A stretch of 57,017 nt of DNA from Candidatus Dormiibacterota bacterium. Its GTDB lineage: Bacteria > Chloroflexota > Dormibacteria > CF-121. Every line of letters begins with the position of its first letter. Position 1 is the stretch's first letter. The notes under the pieces were generated by a model. It was not told where the DNA came from. It saw nothing but the letters and a program-made list of their open reading frames with translations, and made no database searches. Both the position numbers and the translations under genes were made by a program. Shown in pieces: positions 36,780 to 52,344 of the stretch. The stretch spans positions 1-57,017 of the forward strand of contig DATASI010000182.1 of assembly GCA_036269255.1 (NCBI GenBank), in the 5' to 3' direction.

Positions 36780-37070
36780 ATGTGTCGAAGCATCAAGGTC
36801 CTCCGTCGCGCCGATAGCCAGCCGAGCGAACAGGAAATCCACGAGGCGGCGCTGCAGTTCGTCCGAAAGATCAGTGGCTACCGTGTTCCATCGCAAGCCA
36901 ACACCGTGGTCTTCGAGGCGGCCGTCCGTGATGTCACGGCCAGCTCGCAGCGCTTGCTCGAGGAGCTGACTACGCGGCCGGGAGGCGCAGCGCGAAGCTC
37001 GAGCCCTTCCCCGGGTCGCTCCGCTCGAGCAACAACGACCCGCCCATCTGCTCGGCGAGCCCGCGGCTGA
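36780..37070 (+). CDS. DUF2277 family protein
   Basis: MCRSIKVLRR...EIHEAALQFVRKISGYRVPSQAN is the conserved DUF2277 N-terminus. The 3' 101 nt overlap the convergent kinase gene. Confidence 0.65.
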   Translation: MCRSIKVLRRADSQPSEQEIHEAALQFVRKISGYRVPSQANTVVFEAAVRDVTASSQRLLEELTTRPGGAARSSSPSPGRSARATTTRPSARRARG

Positions 37071-38724
37071 CGTAAAGGCCCAGCCCGGTCCCCGGCTTTT
37101 CCAGCACGCGGCGGTCGGTGCCGCGTGTGAAACGAGAAAAGATTCGCGATCGGTCTTCCGGTGACACCCCGATGCCGCTGTCCTTGACCGTCACCGCGAT
37201 CTGATCTCCCTCCCGGGTCGCCGAAACCTCGATCTTCGGCTCCGCATCGACGTAAGTCAATGCATTGTTGAGCAAGTTGTCGAGAATCTTTCCCACCTGT
37301 GTTGCGTCGGCAACCGCCTCCAGTCCGGGCGCGACCTGCACCTCGAGCCTGGCCTTGGCCAGTTCCGCCCGAGGCCGTGCCCGATTCACGGCATCCTCGA
37401 CCGCAGCGCTGATCGAGACCTTGTCTTTCTTCGGGGTCAGGACCTTGCCCTCGAGCCGCGCCACAGTCAGCAGCTCCTCGGCCAGCGCCTTGGCTTCTTC
37501 GGACTTACGCTGGGCGATGGCCAGCACGTCACGCAAAGCCTTCGGCAACTCGCCGAACCCACCTTCGAGGGCCATCCCGATGTAGCCGCTTGTCACGGTC
37601 AGCGGCGCGCGCAACTCGTGGACCGCAAAGCTCATGAACTCGCTCTTGGCCCGCTCGGCTTCTTTGGCCTGGTCGATCAGCCGCGCGTTGCGAAGGAGCA
37701 GCGCGCCCAGCGCCGAGAACTGCTGGAGCGATTGGATCGCGGCTGGATCGAATGGCCGGTCGTCGCGCCGGCCGATCGCCAGCAGGCCGATCGTCTCGCC
37801 GCCGACGATCAGCGGAGCGACCAGGAAGCGGCCATACGGCTGGACAATCGGTTCGAGGCCCTGGGGCGTTCCGGTGTACTCGGGGGCCGAGAGCTCGACG
37901 GGCCGTCCGCGACGAATCCCCGCCAGCACCTTGGGCGCCAGCGGCCAGCGGCTCCCGACGCCGGAGCCGCTGATGGTGGCCTCGATCACCATCTCGCTGC
38001 CATCCACGCGGGCGAGTGAAGCGCCATCCGCGCCCACCGAGTCGCACGCCCCCTGCAGCAGATGGATCAGCACCTCGTTGAGCTGCGTCTGGCTGGCCAC
38101 TTCCTCGGCGGCCTCCACCGCGATCCGCAATCGCGACGCCGTCTGATCGGCGCGCTTGCGCGCCGCCAGCACCTCGTCATAGAGGCGCGCGTTGCGCAGG
38201 GCAAGGCCCGAGATGGCGCCGACCAGCGTCAAGGTCGAGCGATCGTGCGGGCCGAATGGCCGGTCCTCGTAGCGGCTGAGAACCAGCAGTCCGACGGCCT
38301 TTCCCCCGTGGACCAGCGGCAGCGCGGCGACCTGCTTGACATCCGTCAGCGCCGCCCGGAACTCCGGCGCGGCGTTCTCCAGCGCCAGCTGTCCACCGTA
38401 CGCCGGCTCCAGCGTGTCGATCGCCTTCTTGACCAGCGGCTGCCCGGCGAAATAGTCGACCGAATAGCGCTGGCCAACCCAGGTGACGCTTCCCGCGCGC
38501 CCGATGGTGGCCTCGATCACCACCTCGTTCTCGATCAGGCTGGAGAGCGTGGCGCGATCCGCCTGCAGCGCGTGGACGCCGCGCTCGAGGATGCGCGTGA
38601 TGACCTGGCGCGGCTCCAGCGAGCCGGCGACATCCAGGGCAATCTGGACCAGTTCATCAAGGTCCTCGTCCGGCTCGGCGGGCCGGGGGGAGCGGGCTAT
38701 CGCCGTAGTGCGCTCCGGGGGCAT
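36970..38724 (-). CDS. Cytoplasmic GAF-GAF sensor histidine kinase
   Basis: Two GAF-like modules, H-box FAVHELRAPLT, and HATPase N/G boxes (LNNALTY, DSGIGV, GTGLGL). No TM segment and no adjacent response regulator. Confidence 0.85.
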   Translation of the reverse strand: MPPERTTAIARSPRPAEPDEDLDELVQIALDVAGSLEPRQVITRILERGVHALQADRATLSSLIENEVVIEATIGRAGSVTWVGQRYSVDYFAGQPLVKKAIDTLEPAYGGQLALENAAPEFRAALTDVKQVAALPLVHGGKAVGLLVLSRYEDRPFGPHDRSTLTLVGAISGLALRNARLYDEVLAARKRADQTASRLRIAVEAAEEVASQTQLNEVLIHLLQGACDSVGADGASLARVDGSEMVIEATISGSGVGSRWPLAPKVLAGIRRGRPVELSAPEYTGTPQGLEPIVQPYGRFLVAPLIVGGETIGLLAIGRRDDRPFDPAAIQSLQQFSALGALLLRNARLIDQAKEAERAKSEFMSFAVHELRAPLTVTSGYIGMALEGGFGELPKALRDVLAIAQRKSEEAKALAEELLTVARLEGKVLTPKKDKVSISAAVEDAVNRARPRAELAKARLEVQVAPGLEAVADATQVGKILDNLLNNALTYVDAEPKIEVSATREGDQIAVTVKDSGIGVSPEDRSRIFSRFTRGTDRRVLEKPGTGLGLYVSRGLAEQMGGSLLLERSDPGKGSSFALRLPAA

Positions 38725-38854: not shown

Positions 38855-39394
38855 ATGAAAGAAGCATCGCTCCTGGTCCTCGCCGTGGTGCTGGCCGCCT
38901 GCTCCCCACAAGCGACGGGATCGACCAGGAGCTCGATCAGCACTGCGCCGGCGACCGCCACGCAGGCGGCCTCGTCGCAACCGTCGATTACGTCGACCGG
39001 CTGCGGATCTACGGCCGTCCTCGCGGGCGGGATTCCGCAATGGCTCAATGATGCCGGCGGCCACAACAACCCGCTTGGTGTTCCATATGTGATCGCACAG
39101 CCGCCGCTGGCGGCGGGGTTTCTATTCGGTTACCCGCTTCACGCCGGGCATCCGAACAATCCGTCGAACAAGATCCTCTGGGTGGTCCGAACGGCGCGCA
39201 ATGGCCCACTGACAATCGACGCGCATCCCCTTACCGCGACATCGCCGGTCGTCCATCAAGTGTTTCCTGACAACGCCGGACCAGGGGAGATCTATCCCAG
39301 CGGTGTCGATGTGCCGACAGCCGGCTGCTGGCAGCTCGACCTGCGCTGGGCCGGCAGCCATACCGAGGTCGAACTGAGCTACGTCTCGCCGTAG
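38855..39394 (+). CDS. Lipoprotein of unknown function
   Basis: AGGAG SD, lipobox LAAC after MKEASLLVLAVV, and a Ser/Thr-rich linker. I recognised no family. Confidence 0.6.
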   Translation: MKEASLLVLAVVLAACSPQATGSTRSSISTAPATATQAASSQPSITSTGCGSTAVLAGGIPQWLNDAGGHNNPLGVPYVIAQPPLAAGFLFGYPLHAGHPNNPSNKILWVVRTARNGPLTIDAHPLTATSPVVHQVFPDNAGPGEIYPSGVDVPTAGCWQLDLRWAGSHTEVELSYVSP

Positions 39395-39404
39395 CTAAGC
39401 CGCG

Positions 39405-40787
39405 TCAGCGCAGGGGCGCGTGCCTGTCAGGGCCGAGGTTGCGTACCGCTTCGCCAACGCCGCGATAGAAGGTCGGATAGGCATAGATCATGTGCCGGAG
39501 TTCGTCGGTCGGAACCTGGTTCTTGATCGCCAGCTCGAAGACGCCGAGGACGTCGCCGCCACGCGGCCCCATCGCCGTCGCTCCGACCAGCACGCCCCGG
39601 TCGGCATCCTCGACAACCTTGATGAAGCCGTCGTTGCCGGGGCCGTGGATCCATCCCCGCGACGTGACCGATGTCTTCTGGATCCCGGTCCGCACCTTGA
39701 TGCCTTTCTTCCTGGCTTGCTCCTCGGTGAGCCCGGCGGCCCCCACCTCGGGATCGGTGAAGGTCACGCGCGGCTTGGCGCGGTAGTCGGCGGCCGGTCC
39801 GCGCGTCTCCAGGACTTCGTTGACCACGATGTCGGCGTGATAGATCGCCATATGCGTGAAGCCACCGTTGGGAGTCACATCGCCCACCGCCCAGGTGCGC
39901 TCGGCAACGCGCAGGTAGGGATCCGCCTCCAGAAAACGCGCCGACGGATCGAGTCCGATCGTCTCCAGGCCGATGTCTTTGAGATTCGTGCTCCGTCCGG
40001 TTGCCACCAGCAACTTCTCGCCTCGAACGTCTTCGCCGCTGTCCAGCTCGACGACGACCGCGCCACCGTCAGCGTGGACTGAGCGCGCGTGCACTCCGAG
40101 ATAGAGCTGGATGCCGTCCCGCCGGAGCACATCGCCAAGAACGGCACCGGCTTCCGGCTCCTCCATCGCCAGGACGTGGCTCATGCCCTCGATGATGCTG
40201 ACCTTGACACCAAACCGGGCGAACGCCTGCGACAGCTCCAATCCAATCGCGCCACCTCCGAGCACCACCAGCGAGCCGGGTAGCTCTTCGACCTTGACGG
40301 CTTCGCGGTTCGTCCAGTACGGAACATCCGCGAGGCCCGCAATCGGTGGGATCGCCGGCGCGGTTCCGGTGGCGATCACCACCGCTCGTCTTGCCTCGAA
40401 GGTCGTGCCGTCAACCGCGACCTTGCCGACTCCGGCCAGGCGGCCGAAGCCGCGGATGAGGCGCCCGCCTTTCTTTTCGAAGCGTTCCACCGCGGCGCGA
40501 TCGTCCCAGTTGTCGGTGGCGACCTCGCGTATCCGTCGCGCCACCGGGCTCCAGTCCGGTGAGACTGTCGACGACCCGGCCAATTCCGGGATCCGCCGCC
40601 CCTCGGCGAGCGTCTCGGCGGCGCGGTACATCATCTTGGTCGGCACGCACCCGTAATAGGGACACTCGCCGCCGACCAGGTGGTGCTCGATGCCGACCAC
40701 CTTGAGCCCGTTGCTTGCCAGGCATTCGGCGACCTCTTCGCCGCCCACGCCCATGCCGAGCACGATGGCGTCGACCTGTTCGGTCAT
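39405..40787 (-). CDS. Class I pyridine nucleotide-disulfide oxidoreductase (LipDH/MerA-core-like, CxxxxC)
   Basis: GMGVGG FAD motif, redox-active GGECPYYGCVPTK, GGGAIGLE NAD motif, and a dimerisation domain with YAYPTF...GE in place of HPT..E. Confidence 0.85.
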   Translation of the reverse strand: MTEQVDAIVLGMGVGGEEVAECLASNGLKVVGIEHHLVGGECPYYGCVPTKMMYRAAETLAEGRRIPELAGSSTVSPDWSPVARRIREVATDNWDDRAAVERFEKKGGRLIRGFGRLAGVGKVAVDGTTFEARRAVVIATGTAPAIPPIAGLADVPYWTNREAVKVEELPGSLVVLGGGAIGLELSQAFARFGVKVSIIEGMSHVLAMEEPEAGAVLGDVLRRDGIQLYLGVHARSVHADGGAVVVELDSGEDVRGEKLLVATGRSTNLKDIGLETIGLDPSARFLEADPYLRVAERTWAVGDVTPNGGFTHMAIYHADIVVNEVLETRGPAADYRAKPRVTFTDPEVGAAGLTEEQARKKGIKVRTGIQKTSVTSRGWIHGPGNDGFIKVVEDADRGVLVGATAMGPRGGDVLGVFELAIKNQVPTDELRHMIYAYPTFYRGVGEAVRNLGPDRHAPLR

Positions 40788-40788
40788 C

Positions 40789-43437
40789 TCAATTTGCCGC
40801 CGGCGCCGGTGGCTTGTTCGCGGCGGCCAGCGCTTCCTGCAGGGCCTCCTCGATGGTCAGCCTTTGCCCTTCGGCCAAGGCGCGCGCGGCCTCCGCCTCG
40901 GACAGTCCCTCACGGCCCGTCCGTCCTTCTTGTTTGCTCAGGAGTGCGCCGAGGCTGGCCCCGGTCGCTGCCTGGAGGGTCTTGCCGGCGCTGGCCAGCC
41001 GTGCTCCCCTGTACGGGTCGCCGTCGCGCCGAATCACCTCGGCCAGGTTGTCCAGTTGCAACACGATGCCGGACAGGTCGTTGGCCTCCTGGAACAGCGT
41101 GACCGCCTCCATGAAGCTGCGCCGCGCGCCATCGACATCACCGAGCTTCAGCAGCACCTGTCCGGTGCTGTGCAGGCACCAGGCGAGGCCGAATCGGTCA
41201 TCCAGCTTTCGAAACAACGCCTCCGATTCCTTCATCAACGTCCGCGCCTCCAGGTCGCGGTGCTGGAAGTGATAGGTGTTCGCAGTCGTCCACAGGGTTC
41301 GAGCGACGCCGCCCTGGTCGTTGAGGCTCCGGTAAATGGGCAGCGCTTCTTCGAGCAACCGGCGCGAGCGTTCGACGTCGGTCACGGTGATGGTGGATGG
41401 GAAGGCGGCATTGTAGAGGGCGTGGGCGAGCGCCGCCGGATTGTCCATCCGCCGGGTCAGCTCCAGACACTGGTCGTACAGTGTCTGGGCGGTTTCCATG
41501 TCGGCCTGCCAGTAGGCCAGGCTGCCGGCGGCTTCAAGTGCCTCCAGGCGTTCCATCGAGAAGGCGTCGCCGCCGCGAACGCCGAGCACGATGGTCAGCC
41601 GGGCACGGCCCTCATCGATGTGCCCGCGCATCTGCCAGAAGCGCCACAGGCAGGCGGCGAGCTGCATGGCGTTTCTCGAGTCACCCGACGTGATCGTCCA
41701 GTCGAGAGCGGCGCGAAAGTTGTCTTGCTCAATCGCCAGCCGATCCAGCCAGGCTTTGCGCTCGCTGCCAAAGAGGTGGGGCTGGGCCTCCCGCGCGAGC
41801 GCAAGATAGGCCTTGACGTGGCGGTCCTTGATGCTCGCAGCTTCGCCTCCGACCTCGAGCCGGTCGGCTGCGAACTCTCGGATCGTTTGCAGCATCAGGA
41901 AACGCGGCTCGTCGAACTCGGGGACGCGCCGGAGCAAGCTTTGATCAGCCAGCTGATCAAGGCGGTCGAGCACCTCGCCGCCGATTTCCATCGTCGGGCC
42001 GCAGACCTGCTCAGCCTGCAGCAGACTGGCCCCGCGGCCGAAGACGGAAAATCGTTCAAACACGCGGCGGCCGGCGTCGTCCAACAGGTCGTGACTCCAT
42101 TGAATCGCTCCACGCAGCGTTTGTTGCCGGGTTGGAAGATCGCGAGCGCCGGTGCCGAGCGCGGTCAACGTTTTTTCCAGCCGGCCCAGCAACGCCTGCG
42201 GCGAAAAGAGCCTGACCCGCGCGGCAGCAAGCTCGATCGCAAGCGGCAGGCCATCGACCCGCTCGCAGATCCCCGCGATCGCGGGCGCGTTCGCGTTGGT
42301 TGCCTGGAAATCTGGCTTGGCGGCAACGGCGCGCTCGATGAACAGCCGGACAGCCTCGAATTGGGATAGCGCTGCCGCTGTCGGTTGGGTCCCGGTGTCT
42401 GGCAGGCCGAGCGGGGGAACGGGAAACTCCTGCTCGCCGTAAACACGAAGCACGGCCCGGCTGCTGACGACGAGTCGCAAATCGGGACTGGCCTCCAACA
42501 ACGTGGTCGTGACCGGCGCGGCGGCAAGCAGCTGCTCGAAGTTGTCCAGCACCAGCAGGGTCCGCTTGTCGTGCAGGTAATCGAGCAGGACGTCGATCGG
42601 CCGCCGAGTGCCGGTCGACTGTACCGCGAGCGCCTGCGCGATCGCGGAGGGCACCAGCTCAGGATCTGTGACGGCTGCCAGTGGGACGAAGAAGACGCCG
42701 TCGGGGAACTGGTCAAGCACGTCGGTCGCGAGCTGCAGGCTCAAGCGCGTCTTTCCCGTCCCGCCGGGGCCCGTCAGCGTCAACAGCCGGCTGCGACCCA
42801 GCAGCGCCTTCGCCTCGCGGACCTGGTCGTCGCGCCCGATGAAGCTGGTCATCTGCGTCGGCAAATTGTTGGGGGTCGCCTCCAGTGTTCGCAGCGCCGG
42901 AAACTCGCTGGGCAAGCCCTCGATGGTGAGCTGGAAGAGACGTTCGGGCCGGGCCAGGTCCTTGAGCCGGTGCACGCCGAGGTCCTTGATCGACAGGCCT
43001 GCCGGTAACGCACTCCCGACCAGCGTTCGGGTCGTTTCCGACAGGAGGACCTGGCCGCCGTTCGCCGCGCCCGCCACCCTGGCGGCTCGATGAACGTCGA
43101 TCCCCAGATACTCGTTGCCAACCAGCGTCGCCTCGCCGGTATGCAGCCCGACGCGGACCAGGACCTTTGATCCCGCCGGCCAATCATGCTCGGCGAGCAG
43201 CTTCTGCACGGCGGCGGCCCCGGCGCAAGCCCTGACCGCGCTGTCGAAGACGACGAAGAACGAGTCGCCCTCCGTGCGCAGCTCATGGCCGCCGTTGGCC
43301 GCCAGCGCCTGGCGCTGGATCGCATGATGCGCGAGCAAGGCGTCGGGGTACTCGGAGCCGAGTTGCTGGATGAGCCTGGTCGAGCCCGCGATGTCGCTGA
43401 AGAAGAAGGTGATGGTGCCGGTTGGCAGCTCGCTCAT
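40789..43437 (-). CDS. Class III nucleotidyl cyclase domain + STAND (NB-ARC-like) NTPase + TPR repeats
   Basis: TFFFSDIAGSTRL, TEGDSFFVVF and GIDVHRAARV (cyclase fold). NLPTQMTSFIGRD, the P-loop TGPGGTGKT and LLVLDNFEQ. The C-terminal third has TPR-like repeats. Confidence 0.85.
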   Translation of the reverse strand: MSELPTGTITFFFSDIAGSTRLIQQLGSEYPDALLAHHAIQRQALAANGGHELRTEGDSFFVVFDSAVRACAGAAAVQKLLAEHDWPAGSKVLVRVGLHTGEATLVGNEYLGIDVHRAARVAGAANGGQVLLSETTRTLVGSALPAGLSIKDLGVHRLKDLARPERLFQLTIEGLPSEFPALRTLEATPNNLPTQMTSFIGRDDQVREAKALLGRSRLLTLTGPGGTGKTRLSLQLATDVLDQFPDGVFFVPLAAVTDPELVPSAIAQALAVQSTGTRRPIDVLLDYLHDKRTLLVLDNFEQLLAAAPVTTTLLEASPDLRLVVSSRAVLRVYGEQEFPVPPLGLPDTGTQPTAAALSQFEAVRLFIERAVAAKPDFQATNANAPAIAGICERVDGLPLAIELAAARVRLFSPQALLGRLEKTLTALGTGARDLPTRQQTLRGAIQWSHDLLDDAGRRVFERFSVFGRGASLLQAEQVCGPTMEIGGEVLDRLDQLADQSLLRRVPEFDEPRFLMLQTIREFAADRLEVGGEAASIKDRHVKAYLALAREAQPHLFGSERKAWLDRLAIEQDNFRAALDWTITSGDSRNAMQLAACLWRFWQMRGHIDEGRARLTIVLGVRGGDAFSMERLEALEAAGSLAYWQADMETAQTLYDQCLELTRRMDNPAALAHALYNAAFPSTITVTDVERSRRLLEEALPIYRSLNDQGGVARTLWTTANTYHFQHRDLEARTLMKESEALFRKLDDRFGLAWCLHSTGQVLLKLGDVDGARRSFMEAVTLFQEANDLSGIVLQLDNLAEVIRRDGDPYRGARLASAGKTLQAATGASLGALLSKQEGRTGREGLSEAEAARALAEGQRLTIEEALQEALAAANKPPAPAAN

Positions 43438-44948
43438 GCTGGCATCGCCGCCGCCGTCAGGACCGGCGCCAGGATGTCCTCCATCTGGCGTGGATACTCT
43501 CCCCCACGGAAATCAAGGAGCGGATGTGGGGCCATGAGATGTTCCAGCATGGCGCCGTCTTTGCGGACGTAGACCGCGGGATAGGGATTGCCCTGCCCAT
43601 TCGATTCCAGGGTCACCGCGATCGCGTTGGGACCTCCGGCATCGAGAAAGTGGGCGAGCGGCCAGATTCCTGCATCGGTGATGCCGCGGTCTCGGTCGAG
43701 GTTGACCACGCGCGCGAGGTAGGAGCGCTGGTGCCAGAGCTCAGGACCCTCGCTGAGCTCGTTGAGCAGGTGGGAGACCAACCGATCGGGTGCGATCGCC
43801 GACGCTTGCAGCTGTTTGCCGAATCGCGTCTTGGCAAGATGGCGTGCCAGGACGCGCGCGTTGTAGCGATGACCCTGTACCGCGCCGGAATTGCTGGGAA
43901 TCCCGTGCTTCTTCAGTCCGGCCGACCCCTGGGTAATGGTGCCGGCAAAGAAGATGCCGGGAACCGTTGCACTTTCCCAGAAGGCGGTTTGCGCCGGAAG
44001 CCGGCTCTGGCCAAAGGTCGCCACCCCAAGCTTGGGAAGGTCGCCCAGCGGACAGGTAAAACCGGTGGCGGCAATGACGTCGTCGACCTCGACCGTAAGC
44101 GCCGACCCGTCGGGATTCCGGGTCCGGACGGCAAAACCATTCCCGGACCGGTCCACGCCTTCGATCGTCGTGTCGAGGATGATCACCCCGCCGGCGAGGG
44201 CCGCATCTTCATAGGGCTGCACGTAGCGGGCGCGCACGCCGACCAGGGTATGGGTGTTGACCGACAGCTTGGTCGGGCTCGGCGAGGCCAGGATCAGCTG
44301 TCGCGCCCAGGGCAGCAGCCCGGTCGCGATCTCGAAGCCCGAGTTCTGCTTGCCGATGATGAAGACGCGCCGGTCCCGATAGGTCTCCACCGGACGGAAA
44401 TCCCCGTAATGGGGCAGCCCCTCCAGACCCTGGATCGCGGGCCGGTACGGCTGCGCCACGCCCACGGCGAAGACCAGCGCGGGAGCACGGTATTCCCCGT
44501 CCGATGTGCCGACAACGAAGTCATCCTTGTCTTTGCCCGTCGATTGCCACTCGCACTCGAATCGAACCTCCGTCCCCGTCCGCTCGGCGAAGGTTTCGAG
44601 ACCGCGCTGCATTTCGGGTCGCGAGGGGAAGTATGAGGTGCCGTCCATCAGCGCCGGCATCACCGCCCGGTGATCCGCTTCCTCGCCAATCAGGCTGTTC
44701 CAGTCGTAACGCTCATACGCCCGCGCGTTGTGGTCGAGACCACTGAACGGCTTGGTCCAGCTCAGCATTCGCTGGAAGATGGGCCAGCGGCGGAACATTC
44801 CGCCTGGCGCCTCGTCTTGCGAAAGGAGGGCGTGCTCGATCCCCAGCCGGGTCAACGAGTAGCTGAGCTGGAGGCCCCCGGGTCCGCTCCCAACGACAAT
44901 CAGCGGATAACGGCCCGGCGGAAAGGGCTTGCCGGCCTGCCCAGTCAC
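43434..44948 (-). CDS. FAD/NAD(P)-binding flavoprotein (FMO / Pyr_redox_3-like) with a C-terminal extension of about 130 aa of unknown function
   Basis: VVGSGPGGL and IIGKQNSGFE dinucleotide motifs, and ATGF near the end of the flavoprotein core. GTG start 10 nt after the upstream stop. ATGA overlap with the cyclase gene. Confidence 0.75.
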   Translation of the reverse strand: MTGQAGKPFPPGRYPLIVVGSGPGGLQLSYSLTRLGIEHALLSQDEAPGGMFRRWPIFQRMLSWTKPFSGLDHNARAYERYDWNSLIGEEADHRAVMPALMDGTSYFPSRPEMQRGLETFAERTGTEVRFECEWQSTGKDKDDFVVGTSDGEYRAPALVFAVGVAQPYRPAIQGLEGLPHYGDFRPVETYRDRRVFIIGKQNSGFEIATGLLPWARQLILASPSPTKLSVNTHTLVGVRARYVQPYEDAALAGGVIILDTTIEGVDRSGNGFAVRTRNPDGSALTVEVDDVIAATGFTCPLGDLPKLGVATFGQSRLPAQTAFWESATVPGIFFAGTITQGSAGLKKHGIPSNSGAVQGHRYNARVLARHLAKTRFGKQLQASAIAPDRLVSHLLNELSEGPELWHQRSYLARVVNLDRDRGITDAGIWPLAHFLDAGGPNAIAVTLESNGQGNPYPAVYVRKDGAMLEHLMAPHPLLDFRGGEYPRQMEDILAPVLTAAAMPA

Positions 44949-44958
44949 CGGACTCGCG

Positions 44959-45381
44959 TCAGCTCACCCATTTCGTGGTGTGCTTCAGCTTTCGAGCCTC
45001 GCGCTGCAGCAGGCGGTACATGATGCGTGGGTGCTTCAAAAGGAATGCCTCGAGCTGGGCGCAGGGAAGGATAAGGCAGCGAAGCGGCTGGGTTGCCACG
45101 ATATCGGCCACCGGCTGATCGCCGACCAGGCACGAGATTTCACCGAAGAAGTCGCCGGCCTTGAGCGGCGCCCGGTCCACGCCGTCCACCCGGATGACGG
45201 CGGCCCCTTCGACGATCACGTAAAAACCGGATCCCGTGACCCCCTGCCGGAGGATGCGCTCGCCCTGACCGAACCAGGCTTCGTCGAAGGTATGGGCGAT
45301 GGCCTCGAGCTCCGGCCCGCTGAGATCGGCAAACAGCGCGAAGCCGGCGATGGTCTCGACGACGTCGCTATGGACCGCCAT
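44959..45381 (-). CDS. Stand-alone cyclic-nucleotide-binding (CAP/CNB-fold) domain protein, 140 aa
   Basis: FADLSGPELEAIA..., GERILRQG..GSGFYVIVEG and GDFFGEISCL (FGE of the phosphate-binding cassette). No DNA-binding or other domain. Confidence 0.8.
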   Translation of the reverse strand: MAVHSDVVETIAGFALFADLSGPELEAIAHTFDEAWFGQGERILRQGVTGSGFYVIVEGAAVIRVDGVDRAPLKAGDFFGEISCLVGDQPVADIVATQPLRCLILPCAQLEAFLLKHPRIMYRLLQREARKLKHTTKWVS

Positions 45382-46979
45382 CAGGCTGTGTCTCTCGCGG
45401 CCTGAGTTGGTGCGCCGGACTGAGCGCTTTCACCCGCAATCGATCGTCGTGGGTTTCGGATCCCAACGGCATTGACCAGCGCTCCGGCGAGCAATAGCGC
45501 GGCACCGACCATGACCGCCAGGTGGAAGGCGTCGGTTGAGGCGGTCCTCACCAGCGCGGCCAACGACGGAATCCCAGACGGGTTCAGCGGGCTGACGCGC
45601 TGCCTGAAGCTGGGTGAATTGACATCGATGCCAACCAGCCCGGCGTGAGCCGCGATCGCCGCGTAGAAGCTGTTGGTGATGAGGATGAAGATCAGCGCTC
45701 CGGCGAGCTGGGGCCCGACGCGCGAGATCGCATTGTTGATGGCCGAGGCCAAGCCGGAGTTATGCGCCGGCACCGACGTCATGAGGGCCGTCGTCAGCGG
45801 GGCGACCGTGATCATGATTCCGATCCCGAACAGCAGCAATCCGGGCAGGAAGTCGGTCAGATAGGAGAGCGGAGGCACGAACGTCGAAGGGTTGCTCAGC
45901 TGCAGATGCCAGGCGGCGCTGGTCGCGGGCGTTCGGGTGTACCAGAGCACGCCAAGCGCCATGATCAGCGGGCCTACAGCCATGAACCAGCGTGGACCGA
46001 TGCGGCTGGCGAGTCCGCCGAAGCGTGACGAACCGAAAATCAGGAAGAGACTTCCGGGAAGGCCCATCAATCCGGCGGCCGCCGCCGTGTAGCCGAGCGT
46101 CCCCTGGACGAAGAGCCCGAGGTAGTAGAAGGTCACATAGAGTGCGCCATAGATCAGGAAGGTGGAGATGTTGGTGACCGTGAAATTTCGCGATTTGAAC
46201 AGCCGGGGAGGGATCAGCGGATGCGGTGCCCGCAGCATCCAGATCGGCAGAATCGCGGTGAAGATCGCGCCGACGGCGAGCCCGATGAACCCGAGCGGGT
46301 CCTGCCAGTTTCGTTGTGCCCCGAAGATCGCGCCGAACGACAGGCCGCCCACTGCCAGCGCGACGATCGCGGCGCCCAACCAGTCGAAATGCGGGCTCGC
46401 CTCTTCGTCTCGGCTCTCCGGGACATGCGCCGAGGTCGCCCAGAGCGCAATCGCAATCAGCGGGATATTGATGAGAAAAGCCGCGCGCCAGGAAATCGAA
46501 TCGACCAGCAGGCCGCCGACCAGGGGCCCCAGAATCGTGGTTGCCCCGGACGCTCCGGCCCAGACGCCGAAGGCTCGGCCCTGTGCTTCGCCCTCGAAGT
46601 TGGAGGTGATCAAGGCCAGCGACCCGGGCACCAAGAATGCTCCGGCCGCGCCCTGGAGGATGCGAAACAGCACCAGGAGCTCCATGTTTGGCGCCAGCCC
46701 GCAAAGAACGGACGTCAGGCCAAAACCGGCCAGGCCGAGCATGAAGGTTCGCTTCCGGCCGTAGTAATCGGTCAGGGCGCCGGCCAGGATCAGCAGCGCG
46801 GAGAGGGTGAGGAGGTAGGCGTTGTAGACGTAGGACTGGCCCTCGAGCGTGCCCATGAACAGCCGTGGAAGATCGCGCCCGATCCGTGGCAGGGCGACAT
46901 TGACGACCGTCGAATCGAGGAACACGATGCCGGACCCGAGCACGGCGGCAATCAGGATCCAGCGGCGCCGTTCAGCCAT
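45381..46979 (-). CDS. MFS transporter, 14-TMS DHA2 (EmrB/QacA-like) drug:H+ antiporter type
   Basis: LDSTVVNVALPRI, GALTDYYGRKR and 14 hydrophobic segments. GGAGGGG SD lies inside the 3' end of the upstream gene. Confidence 0.85.
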   Translation of the reverse strand: MAERRRWILIAAVLGSGIVFLDSTVVNVALPRIGRDLPRLFMGTLEGQSYVYNAYLLTLSALLILAGALTDYYGRKRTFMLGLAGFGLTSVLCGLAPNMELLVLFRILQGAAGAFLVPGSLALITSNFEGEAQGRAFGVWAGASGATTILGPLVGGLLVDSISWRAAFLINIPLIAIALWATSAHVPESRDEEASPHFDWLGAAIVALAVGGLSFGAIFGAQRNWQDPLGFIGLAVGAIFTAILPIWMLRAPHPLIPPRLFKSRNFTVTNISTFLIYGALYVTFYYLGLFVQGTLGYTAAAAGLMGLPGSLFLIFGSSRFGGLASRIGPRWFMAVGPLIMALGVLWYTRTPATSAAWHLQLSNPSTFVPPLSYLTDFLPGLLLFGIGIMITVAPLTTALMTSVPAHNSGLASAINNAISRVGPQLAGALIFILITNSFYAAIAAHAGLVGIDVNSPSFRQRVSPLNPSGIPSLAALVRTASTDAFHLAVMVGAALLLAGALVNAVGIRNPRRSIAGESAQSGAPTQAARDTA

Positions 46980-49023
46980 GGTCCCCTCCTGCGGATACGG
47001 ACTGCGCCGATTCTAGGCCGCGATCGGTTGCGACTTGCTCTCCAATCGGAATTTTGTCCAGTCGCACGGCGCCCCAAGCTTGCGTCAGGTGTGGATCGAC
47101 GCGCAGCCTCCCATCGACGATGTCGAGACCCATCACGGTGCGCAAGGCCATCAGGGGCGCGCCCGCCGCCCAGGCCTGGGGCCGAGACGCCGTCGGGTAC
47201 TCGACCGGTGCGCCGGTCTCCTCCCGCGAAAAACCGGCGAACACCTCTGGCAGTCGGTAGTCGAAGGCCTCAGCGGCCTGGACCAGCATCAACGCGAGGT
47301 GCGAGGCGTGATCGCGCTGTCCATACCTGCGCATGCCCTCGGCGATGAACGCTGTGTCGTGCGGCCAGACGGTGCCGTTGTGGTATTCGATCGGGTTGTA
47401 TCCGGCATCATCGGCAGACATGGTGCGAATACCCCAGCCGGTGAACATCTCGGATGACATCAGGCGGTGGGTCAGCAGGGCGGCTCGGTCCTCGGGAACG
47501 ATGCCAGACCAGAGCAGGTGTCCAACGTTGGATGTCATGGCGTCGACCTGGCGCTTGTCGCCGTCGAGTGCGAGCGCATAATACCCGCGCGTATCGATCC
47601 AGAAATCGCGATTGAACCGCTCGCGCAGCGCGGCCGCATCGCGTTCCAGCCGCTGTGCCAGGTCCTGGTCGGCCCATACTTCACGAGCCAGTCGCGCCAT
47701 CCGCACTCGGGCGTCGTATGCATAGCCCTGGATCTCGCAGGTGGCGACCGGTCCTATCGCCACCCTGCCGTCGTGGAAGAGGATCGAGTTCCACGAGTCC
47801 TTCCAGCACTGATTGGCCAGCCCCTTGGGCGATCGGGTCTCGTATTCGAGGTAACCGTCGTGATCGCGGTCGCCGTCGCCCTCGATCCAGGCCAGGGCTT
47901 TCATGGCGGCGGGCTTCAGGCTTCGCACGAAGTCTGAATCGCCGGCCCAGCGCTGGTACTCATCGAGCAGGATCAGGAACAGTGGCGTTGCGTCGTGCGT
48001 GCCGTAGTAGGGGCCATGGGGACGCTCGCCGAGGGCGGTCAGCTCGCCCAGTCGCAGCTCGTGGAGGATCTTTCCCGGCTCCGCGTCGCGAAAGTCATCG
48101 CGCTCTTGCGCCTGCCACGCCGTCAAAGCCTCGAGCGTCGTGCGCGCCAGGTGTGGCTGGAACGGCAGAGCCTGGTAGGCCGTGATCAGGCTGTCTCGGC
48201 CGAAGAGGGCCATGAACCAGGGCAGACCGGCCGCCGGCAGCGAAAAGGAGAGCGTCTTCAGCGGCCGGAACCGAAGAGCCGCGAGGTCGATCAGGCTGCA
48301 TCGGTAGGTATGTGCCAGGACGTCGTTGTCGGTGGTGAGCGTCGGTGCCTGCGCCATCCACTGTTCAAAGCTGGTTGGCATGTCTGGTTTGGGATTACCG
48401 AATGTTCGATCGCCGTGTTCGAGGTGATTGACCTCTCCGTCTCGCACCGGCATCACGTCGATACAGGTCTGCCAGCGGCCACGGGGTTCCAGCTGCAGCT
48501 CGACGTGGGCGCGATCGGGCGTGACCGAGAACATGTGACTGAATTGGATGATTGTCGAGCGGCGGAAGTCGCCGCGTGAGTACATCAGCGTTGCCCCGCG
48601 TTCGGCAACTTCCGTTTCGAGTTCCCCTCGTTTGGGCGTGTGGTCCTTGACTTCAAACAGGTCGGCGAAGTCACTGCCGTACTCGATATCGATCGTCAGA
48701 TGCTGTGGCTGGTCGCTGTGGTTTTGAACCGTAAGGTCTTCGTGGACGCCGCGCGCGACAAAGCGGTCGCGCCGGATTGAAATCGGCGGGTTCTCGCCGA
48801 CGCTGACACTCCCGAGCGTGGCGAATATCGCCGCCGAATAGTAATCGACTGTGCGGCTGGTCAGGACGTGGGTCGGGTGGCCGTTGACCAGCAGGCGCCA
48901 TCTCGAAAGATGGCGCATGTCGGCGTGGAAAAAGCCGTTTGGCATCGGGCTGGGCTCGACGTCGCCGGCGGGGTCCGAGACAAAGAAAGTATTCCCGTCC
49001 AGCACGGTCAGGTCGCCCGCCAT
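46972..49023 (-). CDS. Amylo-alpha-1,6-glucosidase / glycogen debranching enzyme family (GDE_C with bacterial-archaeal N-domain)
   Basis: LTVLDGNTFFVSDPAGDV N-terminal motif, GLPWFMALFGRDS, and an (alpha/alpha)6-type C-terminal half (GYLEY..., WKDSW, YHNGTVWPHD). AAGGGAGGGG SD. Confidence 0.85.
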   Translation of the reverse strand: MAGDLTVLDGNTFFVSDPAGDVEPSPMPNGFFHADMRHLSRWRLLVNGHPTHVLTSRTVDYYSAAIFATLGSVSVGENPPISIRRDRFVARGVHEDLTVQNHSDQPQHLTIDIEYGSDFADLFEVKDHTPKRGELETEVAERGATLMYSRGDFRRSTIIQFSHMFSVTPDRAHVELQLEPRGRWQTCIDVMPVRDGEVNHLEHGDRTFGNPKPDMPTSFEQWMAQAPTLTTDNDVLAHTYRCSLIDLAALRFRPLKTLSFSLPAAGLPWFMALFGRDSLITAYQALPFQPHLARTTLEALTAWQAQERDDFRDAEPGKILHELRLGELTALGERPHGPYYGTHDATPLFLILLDEYQRWAGDSDFVRSLKPAAMKALAWIEGDGDRDHDGYLEYETRSPKGLANQCWKDSWNSILFHDGRVAIGPVATCEIQGYAYDARVRMARLAREVWADQDLAQRLERDAAALRERFNRDFWIDTRGYYALALDGDKRQVDAMTSNVGHLLWSGIVPEDRAALLTHRLMSSEMFTGWGIRTMSADDAGYNPIEYHNGTVWPHDTAFIAEGMRRYGQRDHASHLALMLVQAAEAFDYRLPEVFAGFSREETGAPVEYPTASRPQAWAAGAPLMALRTVMGLDIVDGRLRVDPHLTQAWGAVRLDKIPIGEQVATDRGLESAQSVSAGGDHG

Positions 49024-49086
49024 CGAGGTCCCCTCCCTTCGGTGATCCGCCTGCCGCTAGAGTACTCGCCGAGGAAAGGAGGTTTT

Positions 49087-49638
49087 ATGGCCGTCAATAT
49101 TCGGGAACGGCAGGCACCGATTCGGGAACGCTACAAGGCGAATCGTGATGCCGCGCACATTATTTTGAAGGTGCATAGCGGCAACAGCGATCTCAAGGAC
49201 CCGTTGCACTGCCTGGTCGTGCCGGACGCCGCACCCGCGCATGCCTGGCCCTCCGGCGCTCATCCCGCCGTGGGCGGCGCCGGCGACGTTCCCTGTTCCG
49301 GCGACCTCTTGCTCGGCGCCCTGGCGGCTTGCCAGGAAACGACAATCCGAATGGTGGCGGCCAACATGGGGATCCAGCTTGAGTCCCTGGACATCAGGGT
49401 CGAAGGCGACTGGGATGCTCGGGGCACCCTGGCCATGGGCGATTACCCGATCGGGCTTACCGCGGTTCGATGCGCGACGGCGGTCAAGGTTGCCGGCGAC
49501 GTGAACGGCGACCGGGCGGCCCGGCTGCTTCGCAGCGCGGAAAAATACTGTGTCGTCTTGAACACGCTCCGCGGCGGTGTCCAGGTGGAGTCGAGCTTCG
49601 ACCTCCAGCAGGAGCCAGCGACGAACCGCCCGCGTTAG
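49087..49638 (+). CDS. OsmC family protein
   Basis: AGGAGG SD and Cys motifs LGALAACQ and AEKYCVV. I rejected the upstream extension in the track. Confidence 0.8.
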   Translation: MAVNIRERQAPIRERYKANRDAAHIILKVHSGNSDLKDPLHCLVVPDAAPAHAWPSGAHPAVGGAGDVPCSGDLLLGALAACQETTIRMVAANMGIQLESLDIRVEGDWDARGTLAMGDYPIGLTAVRCATAVKVAGDVNGDRAARLLRSAEKYCVVLNTLRGGVQVESSFDLQQEPATNRPR

Positions 49639-50303
49639 GCTTCCGGCTCGCCTGGTGCCACGAGCCTGGATTCATAGGCCGCGACCACGGCCTGTGCACG
49701 GTTATCGACCTGGAGCTTCTCCAGGACGTGCGCAACGTGGGTTTTGACGGTCGCCTCGCTGACGCTGAGGCGCTCGGCGATCTCGGTGTTTCCAAGCCCG
49801 CGCGCCATTAGCCGGAGGACGTCAAGCTCGCGAGGCGTGAGCTCGGACAGGTCGCGGCTGAGCCCGCTTGGTGAGTCTCGCGTCGCGTAGCGCTCGATCA
49901 ACCGTCGAGTGATCGACGGCGCCAGCAGGGCGTCTCCGGCGTTGACCAACCGAACCGAGGCGATCAACTGCTCGGGCGTCACATCCTTCAGTAAAAAGCC
50001 GCAGGCGCCGGCGCGCAGCGCGGCATAGACGTACTCATCCAGGTCGAAGGTCGTCAGCATCACGATCCGGCATGCACTCGAGCCGTTTCCCAGGATTCGG
50101 CGCGTCGCCTCCAGGCCGTCGAGCCTGGGCATGCGGATGTCCATCAAGATGACGTCGGGCCGGTGGCGGCGGGTCATTGCGACCGCCTCCTCGCCATCCT
50201 GTGCCTCGGCGACGACCTCGAAATCGGGTTGCGATTCGAGGATCAGGCGAAACCCGGCACGAACCAATGACTGGTCGTCGGCGATCAGGACCCTGGTGCT
50301 CAC
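49635..50303 (-). CDS. NarL/FixJ (LuxR-type HTH) response regulator
   Basis: VLIADDQ, DVILMDIRMPRLDG and LTPRELDVLRLMARGLGNTEIAERLSVSEATVKTHV. Confidence 0.9.
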   Translation of the reverse strand: MSTRVLIADDQSLVRAGFRLILESQPDFEVVAEAQDGEEAVAMTRRHRPDVILMDIRMPRLDGLEATRRILGNGSSACRIVMLTTFDLDEYVYAALRAGACGFLLKDVTPEQLIASVRLVNAGDALLAPSITRRLIERYATRDSPSGLSRDLSELTPRELDVLRLMARGLGNTEIAERLSVSEATVKTHVAHVLEKLQVDNRAQAVVAAYESRLVAPGEPEA

Positions 50304-51475
50304 TCGGGCAAGCTCAGCGGCAAATGGGCGCGCACCGCATACCCCTGGGTCGGGCGCTTCCCCGCGTCGATTGTGCCGCCGAAGAGCGCCACGCGCTCGC
50401 GCATCCCGACCAGGCCGCGCCCGATGCCGTCGGCCGGGGAGGCGACCATCCCTTGATCGGCAATCTCGATGTCGAGCGCATCGGGCAAATACCGAACGAG
50501 GACATTGGTCTGCGCACCCCCCGCGTACTTCAAGGCGTTGGTGAGCGCCTCCTGGACGATCCGATACGCGGCGACATCGACGCCCGGCGCCAGTGGCCTC
50601 GCCTCCCCTTGCACCTCGAGGCTGACCGGCAGTCCCGCATCTTTGACCCGCTCGACCAGTGACGTGAGGTCACCCATGCTGGGCTGCGGGACCAACGGTG
50701 GCTCGCTGCCGTTCGCACCAAGCACGCCAAGCAACCGGCGAAGCTCGTCCATCGCCTCGTGACCAACCGTCTCCACGTTCTCGAGTGACTCGCGCGCCGC
50801 ATCCGGCTTCTCGGCCAGTACCTTGCGGGCGGCGCCGGCCTGCACCACCATCACGCTGACGCTGTGGGCGACGACATCGTGCAACTCGCGCGCGATGTGC
50901 TGGCGCTCGGCCTCGGCTGCGGCTTTGATCGCCGCCTCGCGCTCCGAGTTCAGCCGGGCGCTCAGCCTCCGCTCCTCGTTGAGCTGCTTCTGGCGTGCTC
51001 CAATCTCGCGTCCGGCCAGGTACGCGGCACCTAATAGCAGAAAGGGCAGCACGGCGCCGGGGACCGGCAATGTCGACGTCGGGCCGTGGCCAAACTCAAT
51101 CGCGATAAAGAGCGATGCGACGGCGACGGCTGCAAGCGCCAGGTTTTGATGCCGCGAGTGCAGCCCGACCGACACGCAGGCGACGAGGCCACCGATTAGC
51201 GCGGCCAGGACGGTGGCATTGCCGGCTAGACCGTAGCCCGCTACATCGAGGGCCAGGACGGCGACGGGATAGCGTCTCCGTACCAGCAACGGGATCGTGT
51301 TGAGCAGGACGGCAGGCGAAGTAGGCTGGGAGTCCTGCGTGGTGCTTTCGACCACCGCCCAAATCGACAGGCCCACGGCCAGGACAACGTCAATCCAGTG
51401 AATATCGAGGCGGCGCGCGATCATGGTGATCTGCCGCACGCTTAGGACTCTACCGATCAGCGCCTGAACTCGCAT
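50300..51475 (-). CDS. HisKA_3-type sensor histidine kinase with a multi-TM N-terminal domain
   Basis: ERQHIARELHDVVAHSVSVM H-box and HATPase motifs (EALTNALKYA, DQG, GRGLVGMRERV). The start is uncertain (51424-51478). ATGA-type overlap with the regulator gene. Confidence 0.85.
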   Translation of the reverse strand: MRVQALIGRVLSVRQITMIARRLDIHWIDVVLAVGLSIWAVVESTTQDSQPTSPAVLLNTIPLLVRRRYPVAVLALDVAGYGLAGNATVLAALIGGLVACVSVGLHSRHQNLALAAVAVASLFIAIEFGHGPTSTLPVPGAVLPFLLLGAAYLAGREIGARQKQLNEERRLSARLNSEREAAIKAAAEAERQHIARELHDVVAHSVSVMVVQAGAARKVLAEKPDAARESLENVETVGHEAMDELRRLLGVLGANGSEPPLVPQPSMGDLTSLVERVKDAGLPVSLEVQGEARPLAPGVDVAAYRIVQEALTNALKYAGGAQTNVLVRYLPDALDIEIADQGMVASPADGIGRGLVGMRERVALFGGTIDAGKRPTQGYAVRAHLPLSLPE

Positions 51476-51633
51476 CATTCTCCGGGATGAGCCCCGCTCG
51501 CCCGCCTGGGTGAGTCGCTCCCTGATCACCCCGCTGATCGAGATCAATTCACGCGTGGGGCCGACGACGGCGAACCACGCGTGCCCGCATGCTGCGGCCA
51601 TCAAGGGCCACGCCGGCCACAAGGAGCGTGCCG

Positions 51634-52344
51634 ATGGACGCCATCGTCCAACTCACCGACGTCAGCAAGGTCTACAACGACGGCCGACAGTTCGCGGCGC
51701 TCGATGACATCTCGATCGCGCTCAGGCCCGGCGAAGCGGCGGCGATCATGGGGCCTTCAGGGAGCGGCAAATCGACCTTGCTCAACCTGATCGGCGGACT
51801 CGACCGGCCCACCCGCGGAACCGTGACCGTGGACGGCGCCAACCTCGGCCGGCTGAGCGAGGGCGGACTGGCGCGCTTTCGGCGCCAACGCGTCGGTATC
51901 GTCTTCCAGTTCTTCAACCTGCTCAACAATCTGACCGCGCTGGACAACGTCCTGATTCCGGCTCAGCTTGCTGGAGCCCACGGCAACCAGGCCCGCCGGC
52001 GTGCGGAAGAACTGCTCGAACGGCTGGGCGTGGCGGCGCTTAGAAACAGCTACCCGGCCAGACTGAGCGGGGGAGAGCGCCAGCGGGTCGCAATCGCGCG
52101 GGCCCTCATCAACAATCCGCCCCTGCTGCTCGCCGACGAACCGACGGGCGCTCTCGACACGCACAACGGCGACGAGGTCATGGCGATTTTTGCCGATCTC
52201 AATCGCAGCGGGCAGACCATTGTGCTCGTCACCCACGACGAGCGCCTGGCGCGTGCCAATGCCACGCGGGTTCTTCAGCTGGTCGATGGGGCCATCGCGG
52301 TCGACCGCGGCGACTCCACGCTCGGCGTGGTGCAGGCCAAATGA
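51634..52344 (+). CDS. ABC transporter ATP-binding protein (MacB/LolD/FtsE-like)
   Basis: AAGGAG SD, GPSGSGKSTLLN, LSGGERQRVAIARAL and LLLADEPTGALD. Confidence 0.9.
   Translation: MDAIVQLTDVSKVYNDGRQFAALDDISIALRPGEAAAIMGPSGSGKSTLLNLIGGLDRPTRGTVTVDGANLGRLSEGGLARFRRQRVGIVFQFFNLLNNLTALDNVLIPAQLAGAHGNQARRRAEELLERLGVAALRNSYPARLSGGERQRVAIARALINNPPLLLADEPTGALDTHNGDEVMAIFADLNRSGQTIVLVTHDERLARANATRVLQLVDGAIAVDRGDSTLGVVQAK

Follow-up and report, generated by a model that had tools for sequence, protein, structure and literature searches.

The window analysed here is the whole 57,017-nt stretch of contig DATASI010000182.1. On its minus strand, at 39405-49023, it carries a run of six open reading frames (ORFs) encoding, in order from the 5' end of the run, a glycosidase (GDE), a permease (MFS), a protein with the fold that binds cyclic nucleoside monophosphates (cNMPs; the protein is called CNB below), a flavoprotein (FP), a protein that joins a class III cyclase to a STAND NTPase and a TPR array, and a disulfide-reductase-like protein (PNDR) (Table 1). 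An earlier note on this DNA had read the six genes as a single operon for second-messenger and redox functions, in which the cyclase writes a signal, CNB reads it and the two reductases are possible outputs. Our comparison of the locus with its relatives in two phyla indicates that it holds a real, uncharacterised CNB-flavoenzyme module, for which we found no matching described system and which would be of the kind in which an enzyme is regulated by a CNB domain.

Table 1. Features of the operon region in the window, with the role proposed for each where there is one.
Feature	Position	Strand	Description
PNDR	39405-40787	-	460 aa; Dormibacterota-specific accessory; group-1 flavoprotein disulfide-reductase-like, MerA/PRK06370-like
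Cyclase-STAND-TPR	40789-43437	-	882 aa; proposed signal generator
FP	43434-44948	-	504 aa, GTG start; proposed catalytic output
CNB	44959-45381	-	140 aa, stand-alone; proposed regulatory/sensor subunit of FP
MFS	45381-46979	-	532 aa; DHA2-type efflux permease
GDE	46972-49023	-	683 aa; GDE_N_bis/MGH1-like (alpha/alpha)6 glycoside hydrolase
Divergent intergenic region	49024-49086	.	63 nt between GDE start and OsmC start

The six minus-strand ORFs in the ORF listing of the window lie at the coordinates given in the earlier note, and its description of six genes with almost no spacing between them matched our reading of the junctions. GDE and MFS overlap by 8 nt (ATGGCTGA), MFS and CNB have base 45381 in common in a TGATG junction, CNB is followed by a 10-nt gap (44949-44958) and then by the GTG start of FP, FP and the cyclase gene overlap in an ATGA (43434-43437), and a single nucleotide, 40788, separates the cyclase gene from PNDR. 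The note had also placed a short G-rich sequence within the GDE/MFS overlap; the 8-nt overlap stands, while the sequence in question, a Shine-Dalgarno sequence (AGGAGGGG), lies at 46983-46990, inside the GDE coding sequence and just 5' of the overlap, rather than at 46972-46979. This run of ORFs is not a product of chance, because the same genes and overlaps recur in relatives whose products are 68-81% identical. The divergent intergenic region, which has the GDE Shine-Dalgarno sequence GAAGGGAGGGG on one side and the ATG of an OsmC-family gene (49087) on the other, offers the only space for an operon promoter, and we infer that the promoter sits there; a consensus scan found no sigma-70-like site in it. 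Within the operon, a consensus scan for promoters and terminators, which is weak for the Dormibacterota phylum, found no excess of such sites, and this result, with the retention of the same overlaps in relatives, agrees with the compact operon that the note had described. All of its domain calls were likewise recovered by Pfam. Base composition was even across the window (~65% G+C) and free of compositional anomaly, and an Rfam scan of the window returned no family match.

We compared the operon with six independent contigs (L001, L004, L005, L086, L087 and L089) that encode an FP 71-75% identical to that of the window and that, together with the window, form what we call the Dormibacterota-type set. 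Five of the six relatives extend far enough to cover the stretch from MFS to PNDR; the sixth, L086, ends 0.3 kb past FP, where a cyclase-like start lies at the contig end. The order MFS, CNB, FP, cyclase-STAND-TPR, PNDR was kept in all five complete relatives, with the five core products 68-81% identical to the proteins of the window. MFS and CNB share one base or abut in these relatives, the 4-nt ATGA overlap of FP and the cyclase gene was present in 5/5, and the cyclase and PNDR genes either overlap or are separated by 1-37 nt. In every Dormibacterota-type locus, MFS is the gene directly upstream of CNB. The operon head varied: a GDE-like gene occupies it in the window and in L089, GDE plus a Na+/H+ exchanger in L001 and L086, and a GH15/TREH_N hydrolase in L087, while L004 and L005 have no glycosidase. 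This variable head, set against the constant order from MFS to PNDR, shows that the conserved unit in Dormibacterota is made of five genes and that GDE is a co-translated passenger in the window.

To look beyond these close relatives, we made use of a profile scan covering one genome per GTDB species, which gave at least 557 FP relatives, and analysed the 80 best matches to a 46%-identical FP query, all of which came from metagenome-assembled genomes (MAGs) of Gaiellaceae/Thermoleophilia (Actinomycetota) and are referred to as the Gaiellales set. A CNB homologue (136-143 aa, 45-61% identical) lay directly upstream of FP in 77/80 of these loci, the other three being cut at a contig edge, and in nearly all of them the CNB stop was no more than ~20 nt from the inferred FP start. 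The pair was also present in 7/7 Dormibacterota-type loci. CNB and FP are each strongly constrained, being 45-60% identical from one phylum to the other and having many invariant residues. When the ORFs surrounding the pair in the 80 Gaiellales loci were clustered, no other conserved neighbour emerged: PNDR was absent within 10 kb in 80/80 loci, and an MFS gene, 29-33% identical, was found in a subset only. Since the pair alone persists in Gaiellales among otherwise unrelated neighbours, CNB and FP are the evolutionarily stable unit, an older two-gene module inside the five-gene operon. The functional pairing of CNB with the flavoprotein that the earlier note had proposed thus gained strong support from this adjacency in both sets, and gene order at CNB-FP is kept beyond this genome in both phyla. 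The full six-gene set is not: GDE is exchanged for a GH15 enzyme or missing, or is followed by an inserted exchanger, in some relatives, and MFS, cyclase and PNDR genes are unlinked to the pair in most Gaiellales loci, so that the six-gene unit of the note did not hold. In one Gaiellales clade (L007, L009-L013, L015, L016, L018 and L020), we additionally observed an HxlR regulator on the opposite strand and an MFS gene following the pair, about 0-2 kb downstream of FP. HxlR/DUF24 regulators are often electrophile sensors.

The FP family is large, and part of its apparent diversity is spurious. Thousands of metagenomic relatives were found, the best 120 being 71-98% identical and ~504 aa long and the few named ones among them being proteins of Candidatus Dormibacteraeota, Chloroflexi and Acidoferrum MAGs, which makes Dormibacterota (AD3) the probable source of the window. 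Among representatives of clusters at 50% identity, 281 relatives fell below 1e-30, many of them frameshifted translations; Arg/Ala/Pro-rich representatives of this kind (e.g. P0258, P0269, P0281, P0305, P0342 and P0385) make up a large share of the cluster representatives of this high-GC family and therefore inflate its apparent diversity and create false domain fusions. Six apparent CNB-FP fusions (P0285, P0312, P0265, P0302, L066 and L020) that might have served as Rosetta-stone evidence were rejected for this reason, as they carry out-of-frame Arg/Ala/Pro-rich junk at the C-terminal helix of CNB and are frameshift artefacts. A literature search found no paper on CNB-thioredoxin reductase (TrxR) fusions or on Dormibacterota cyclases, and a plasmid search found no close relatives of FP.

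The best Pfam match of FP was Pyr_redox_3 (3e-32), and no NCBIfam model reached its cut-off: the low-Mr thioredoxin reductase model TIGR01292 scored 21 bits against a cut-off of 343, the YpdA/Bdr model TIGR04018 39.5 bits against 339.9, and the ArsO flavin-containing monooxygenase (FMO) model 54.8 bits against 425. Sequence and profile matches to PDB entries 7a76 (Bdr), 2zbw/3ab1 (TrxR-like ferredoxin-NADP+ reductases, FNRs) and 4usq/4a9w/3d1c (small FMOs) covered only residues ~14-363, with Bdr/YpdA, TrxR-like FNRs and small FMOs equidistant from FP. The protein carries the motifs GSGPGG, GK(Q/R/M)NS(G/A)FE and ATGF; the FMO motif FxGxxxHxxxY has no clean copy, and HY...Y stands in its place. 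A conserved insert at residues ~47-113 (PGGMFxxxPxxxRxxxWT...DxNSL...PxRxEM), found in both phyla, is specific to the family, and the GK(Q/R/M)NS(G/A)FE and ATGF motifs and the C-terminal domain are family features kept in both phyla as well. The C-terminal domain of ~135 aa was modelled with a pLDDT of 82.7, and a Foldseek search of this model against the PDB gave no match better than E = 0.36; the full-length AlphaFold model was poor (mean pLDDT 61.7) and was used for the fold class only, which its best Foldseek hits, again of the YpdA/Bdr, TrxR-like FNR and small FMO types, confirmed. A broad family of proteins of ~520 aa, annotated as 'NAD(P)-binding domain-containing proteins' and sharing 30-35% identity with FP, has this C-terminal domain in weakly similar form.

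The earlier note had considered a thiol activity for the flavoprotein, and this fared poorly. FP has only two Cys (C132 and C299), neither of them invariant, and no CxxC; Cys132, considered as a catalytic residue, is replaced by Thr or Ser in 5/81 sequences and was discarded as a candidate. Some distant FP relatives (P0362 and P0363) are fused to indoleamine-2,3-dioxygenase (IDO) or to an A-PCP loading module; others, in Laceyella, Vibrio and Bradyrhizobium (L090, L091 and L092), lie in nonribosomal peptide synthetase (NRPS) or ATP-grasp/radical-SAM clusters and have no CNB gene beside them. By this genomic context, the wider FP family looks like a group of tailoring enzymes of secondary metabolism, and for FP itself an oxidoreductase or monooxygenase acting on small molecules is more likely than a thiol-disulfide reductase.

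CNB matched the Pfam family cNMP_binding (PF00027) at 8e-13, with 48.5 bits against a cut-off of 27.5, and gave a weak match to the mycobacterial Pat model of NCBIfam (3.5e-7). Across 77 sequences from both phyla, its ligand-binding cassette has the consensus F79-G80-E81-x8-P90-x-A92-D93. Gly50, Gly59, Gly76 and Phe79-Gly80-Glu81 are invariant in these sequences, so the barrel glycines and the ribose contact of canonical domains are kept. HMMER alignments to PKG and PKA CNB domains place Pro90 at the position of the phosphate-clamping Arg (R209 of PKA RI-alpha, R82 of CAP) and Asp93 at the Thr/Ser position that follows Arg-x-Ala, in agreement with the spacing of the Pfam consensus. Pro90 and Asp93 are each present in 76/77 sequences and are near-invariant also in 20 Dormibacterota-type sequences, and the CNB alignment contains no conserved Arg obviously able to stand in for the clamp Arg. 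CNB folds that lack this Arg are generally insensitive to cAMP and have other ligands, as in the Family 2B encapsulin CBD, CooA, CprK, NtcA and KCNH (PMC11550324), and the Arg-less regulatory subunit of kinetoplastid PKA binds nucleosides rather than cAMP (PMC10959531). The idea of CNB as a canonical cNMP receptor, implied when the earlier note called it the reader, does not survive the near-invariant replacement of the clamp residues. A redox switch between Cys84 and Cys102 of CNB was also considered and set aside, Cys84 being Ala, Val, Leu or Ile in Gaiellales. Cys102 itself (LRCL strand, window ~45076-45078) was present in 76/77 CNB proteins of both phyla, FP having no invariant Cys.

The 882-aa protein encoded downstream of FP consists of a class III cyclase domain (residues ~1-170), an NB-ARC-type STAND NTPase (~195-450) and a TPR sensor (~630-870), as judged from Pfam matches to Guanylate_cyc (1e-10), NB-ARC (1e-5), AAA_22 (5e-7) and TPR_12 (2e-13, residues 711-784) along with an nSTAND match. 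Alignment with Ma1120 (4wp3) and GRESAG4.1 showed that the metal-binding residues Asp15 (FSDIAGST) and Asp58 (EGDSF) and the transition-state residue Arg120 are kept, as they are in six orthologues. At the substrate-specifying positions, the six orthologues have Arg54 for Lys and Glu109 for Asp, so the pair typical of adenylate cyclases is missing, nor does the window cyclase have the Glu/Cys-type pair of guanylate cyclases. The Walker A (GPGGTGKT, residue 223) and Walker B (LLVLDNFEQ) motifs are intact and conserved in the six orthologues. The window cyclase is probably active.

The link between the pair and cyclases extends to Gaiellales, where we found cyclase genes by clustering of neighbours and by a hidden Markov model (HMM) of the cyclase domain (tblastn with the window cyclase missed most of them) and read their architectures with Pfam. 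A class III cyclase gene was the immediate neighbour of CNB-FP in 16/80 loci. Twelve loci, belonging to one FP clade, have a transmembrane (TM) adenylate cyclase with the canonical Lys, Asp, Asn and Arg, in four arrangements: upstream of the pair and either divergent or co-directional with a 36-44 nt gap, or downstream of it and either convergent with a 0-27 nt gap or co-directional. In L070, a cyclase-AAA_16-TPR gene ends 6 nt before CNB; in L036, L027 and L064, a Zn-ribbon-cyclase-AAA_16-TPR gene lies divergently upstream of the pair; and in L075, a different TM cyclase lies downstream of it. At the cyclase density of the distal flanks (one per 82 kb), chance alone would place a cyclase next to the pair in ~2 loci; the naive binomial tail for 16/80 is 9e-11, a value that treats as independent loci that are not phylogenetically independent. 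The recurrent adjacency and the overlap of FP and cyclase genes in Dormibacterota provide real comparative support for a connection among cyclase, CNB and FP, and the cyclase link of the earlier note remains plausible, with cyclases of at least four architectures recurring beside the pair.

The other products of the operon are less closely tied to the pair. PNDR matched Pyr_redox_2 (9e-47) and Pyr_redox_dim (5e-25) in Pfam, and its best NCBIfam models all scored far below their cut-offs (PRK06370.1-3, 283 bits; MerA TIGR02053, 282 bits against 454; lipoamide dehydrogenase, 278 bits). Its redox motif is an unusual CPYYGC (C42-PYYG-C47). Against LpdA (2eq6), the segment HPHPTLSE reads YAYPTFYR, such that the His is replaced by Tyr and the Glu by Arg and the His-Glu dyad is lost; the C-terminus (NLGPDRHAPLR) lacks the Cys pair of MerA, and there is no N-terminal HMA (NmerA) domain. 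The proposal in the earlier note that PNDR provides a thiol output is hard to maintain for a protein without the His-Glu dyad of LpdA, glutathione reductase and mycothione reductase whose gene is unlinked to CNB outside Dormibacterota. MFS matched MFS_1 (1e-45) and scored 217.5 bits against the 230.2-bit cut-off of the EmrB/DHA2 model TIGR00711; by a crude hydropathy count, it has 13 clear peaks and a probable fourteenth. GDE matched GDE_N_bis (1e-45), MGH1-like_GH (3e-16) and GDE_C (5e-12). The Na+/H+ exchanger gene found between GDE and MFS (L001 6774-8009, L086 4756-6000) has a counterpart directly upstream of the distant FP relative in Laceyella (L090 5583-6857), which may be a coincidence or may reflect a link of this flavoprotein family to cation transport.

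A tandem-GAF histidine kinase (GAF-GAF-HisKA-HATPase) is encoded on the minus strand of the window at 36970-38724. It lies 0.5-2 kb downstream of PNDR and is syntenic in every Dormibacterota-type locus that reaches it (L001 17380-19116, L087 14209-15933, L089 14977-16719), the genes between the two being variable. Since GAF domains, too, can serve as cNMP sensors, the kinase might read the signal of the cyclase in place of CNB or alongside it.

On the far side of the divergent intergenic region, the gene at 49087-49638 (+) was identified by Pfam as a member of the OsmC family (peroxiredoxin-like). The head-to-head OsmC-GDE pair also occurs in L001, L086 and L089, making OsmC divergent in 4/7 Dormibacterota-type loci. 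Upstream of OsmC, at 49635-54713, lie genes for a LuxR-type response regulator, a HisKA_3 kinase and a MacB-like ABC transporter (ATPase plus FtsX permease), a block that directly precedes MFS in L004. At the other end of the operon, a convergent ORF of 179 aa (38855-39394, +) abuts the PNDR stop; its product is lipoprotein-like, with a signal peptide, a lipobox-like VLAAC and no Pfam match, and it is conserved at the corresponding position of L004 (66% identity) but is apparently frameshifted in L001-L003. ArsR/AHSA1 genes lie downstream of the operon, and a gene with a Ku domain (non-homologous end joining) is present at 34699-35637 (+), a few kb downstream of the region. The OsmC, ArsR/AHSA1, HxlR and MFS neighbours weakly hint at an oxidant or electrophile context.

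We consider gating of the flavoenzyme by a cyclase through its CNB subunit to be the likeliest mechanism, although we would place it a little short of an even chance. The TPR array of the STAND protein would sense a cue, whereupon ATP-dependent oligomerisation of the STAND domain, as in its family, would pair the N-terminal cyclase domains into active dimers, a step for which the intact Walker motifs and the catalytic metal-binding and Arg residues leave room. The cyclase would then make a cyclic nucleotide, its specificity residues being Arg and Glu rather than Lys and Asp. CNB would form a complex with FP and gate it on that nucleotide or a close derivative through the non-canonical cassette; CNB and FP are genetically coupled, and ligand binding and physical contact are what we propose. 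FP would in turn oxidise or reduce a small molecule, as its fold class and its distant relatives in biosynthetic clusters suggest, and the pump MFS and the MerA-like PNDR may, in Dormibacterota, deal with its substrate or product or with oxidants formed as a side effect. The more specific claim that the CNB(P-x-A-D)-FP pair is a new second-messenger effector, reading the product of adjacent cyclases or a derivative of it and thereby switching a flavin oxidoreductase or monooxygenase, is a tentative one, and on present evidence we think it rather unlikely.

Several findings weigh against cyclase-controlled gating. CNB has Pro90 and Asp93 where canonical domains have the phosphate-clamping Arg and the Thr/Ser, and loss of these residues usually means no cAMP binding. 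In the cyclase, His116 stands at the Asn position (DVHRAAR) in the six orthologues, although Ma1120, an active cyclase, likewise lacks Asn at the aligned position (VAMAAR); together with Arg54 and Glu109, His116 appears to leave both the activity and the product of the window cyclase uncertain. In FP, Gln, Arg or Met replaces the second Gly of the GxGxxG in the NAD(P)H motif, and use of NAD(P)H is only predicted. As for the comparative evidence, 12/16 adjacent cases fall in one FP clade, so that the independent events number perhaps four to six, and no cyclase domain occurs in at least half of the Gaiellales loci, many of which extend 10 kb to either side of the pair. This last observation does not refute the link, because cyclic nucleotides diffuse and adjacency is not needed. 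The main conflict of the analysis is that the genomics points toward cyclases while the pocket argues against a cyclic phosphate, and a ribose-containing ligand held in a new binding mode would be the most economical reconciliation of the two.

The most serious competing explanation, to which we give considerable weight while thinking it more probably wrong than right, is that CNB and FP are the two subunits of a flavoenzyme in which the ligand of CNB is some other small molecule (a nucleoside, a thiol, or what the enzyme consumes or makes) or CNB is a constitutive structural subunit, the nearby cyclases reflecting shared stress co-regulation or acting through other receptors, such as the tandem-GAF kinase. 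The replacement of the phosphate-binding residues in 76/77 sequences fits this explanation, as do the Arg-less CNB folds that bind no cAMP (PMC11550324) or bind nucleosides (PMC10959531), the many Gaiellales loci without a cyclase domain, and the syntenic position of the GAF-GAF histidine kinase downstream in each Dormibacterota-type locus that extends to it. However, the occurrence of at least four cyclase architectures in several gene orders beside the pair would be difficult to account for if no direct functional tie existed, and the invariance of Gly80-Glu81 and of the barrel glycines makes a ribose-containing ligand still likely.

We regard as improbable the simpler explanation that the operon is a set of functionally unrelated stress or detoxification genes that vertical synteny has kept side by side in Dormibacterota and whose products do not signal to one another. 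The relatives are only 68-81% identical and share a wider synteny (OsmC, sigma factors, GAF kinase and ArsR/AHSA1), which makes gene order alone weak evidence in this set, and most Gaiellales loci show no linkage of MFS, PNDR or GDE to the pair; yet CNB-FP persists in a second phylum amid otherwise unrelated neighbours, cyclases have independently re-associated with it there, and the stop/start overlaps of FP with the cyclase gene and of MFS with CNB are conserved exactly. Antiphage defence of the Pycsar or Avs type, in which the STAND sensor and cyclase would signal and CNB relay the signal to toxic effectors, is very improbable. Although a cyclase encoded with a CNB protein follows Pycsar-like logic, STAND-TPR proteins include antiviral Avs sensors, and CNB weakly matched the CNB portion of PycTIR effectors in PADLOC (8e-9 and 2e-9), PADLOC found no PycC match for the cyclase and no Avs match for the STAND protein, and Pfam found no TIR, TM-toxin or nuclease effector among the operon proteins. 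The operon also keeps its syntenic position across all relatives, is conserved in the manner of a housekeeping locus, shows no compositional anomaly and has no close FP relatives on plasmids. The earlier note had itself set the likeness to Pycsar aside as superficial, and the want of a PycC or effector match in PADLOC bears this out.

Far fewer cNMP receptors than class III cyclases are known in bacteria, notably in Actinomycetota and other soil phyla. If CNB-FP is indeed tied to cyclases, cNMP signalling would gain an output that is enzymatic and redox-based, amounting to direct nucleotide control of redox chemistry across two soil phyla, Dormibacterota and Actinomycetota (Gaiellales), in which it would be widespread, and the pair would define a new ligand-binding cassette with Pro and Asp for Arg and Thr. 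It would also open a first way into the function of a flavoprotein family that has a C-terminal domain lacking a fold match and occurs in hundreds of uncultured soil bacteria. Even with a ligand other than a cyclic nucleotide, CNB-FP is a well-defined two-protein system that is amenable to experiment.

FP, PNDR, the cyclase protein and CNB each resemble, and depart from, described systems. FP shares the two-Rossmann FAD/NAD(P)H fold class and the ATGF linker with YpdA/Bdr, TrxR-like ferredoxin-NADP+ reductases and small type II FMOs, but it differs from all of them in its 47-113 insert, altered NAD(P)H Gly, unmatched C-terminal domain and obligatory CNB partner gene, and it scores far below the family cut-offs. 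PNDR has the CxxxxC centre and the FAD, NAD and dimerisation domains of MerA, RclA and PRK06370-type group-1 flavoprotein disulfide reductases. MerA, like PNDR, has Tyr in place of the catalytic His; unlike MerA, PNDR lacks the NmerA domain and the C-terminal Cys pair. The cyclase protein resembles the mycobacterial type represented by Rv0386, Rv1358 and Rv2488c, which have a cyclase-ATPase-TPR(-HTH) architecture and non-canonical substrate-specifying residues: both have an N-terminal cyclase, an NB-ARC/STAND ATPase and TPRs. The window protein, in contrast, has no C-terminal LuxR helix-turn-helix detectable by Pfam and carries Arg54/Glu109 and His116, and its gene overlaps that of FP, whereas we know of no overlap with a flavoprotein gene described for the mycobacterial cyclase genes.

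With Pycsar (PycC plus a TIR or TM effector fused to a CNB domain), the locus has in common that a cyclase and a CNB protein are encoded together, the match between CNB and PycTIR being weak; here, however, there is no PycC match and no TIR/TM effector, and the locus is chromosomal and syntenic. In Xanthomonas, XC_0250 (a cGMP cyclase) and XC_0249 (CNB-GGDEF) are encoded side by side (PMC3770947), and in this system, as in the CNB-GNAT acetyltransferase Pat (Rv0998 type), CNB is the allosteric switch of an enzyme. The CNB of the window differs from XC_0249 and Pat in being a separate 140-aa protein, in having a flavoenzyme as partner and in its cassette without the phosphate-binding Arg. In this last respect, it is closest to the Arg-less CNB folds of kinetoplastid PKA-R and the encapsulin CBD, with which it shares the canonical barrel, the Gly-Glu ribose contact and the replacement of the Arg of the phosphate-binding cassette, a replacement that suggests a different ligand. 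Its pattern, with Pro at Arg, Asp at Thr/Ser and Ser (not Glu) at the position of PKA Ala202, differs from the solutions in those two proteins and is new, and here, unlike there, cyclase genes recurrently adjoin CNB.

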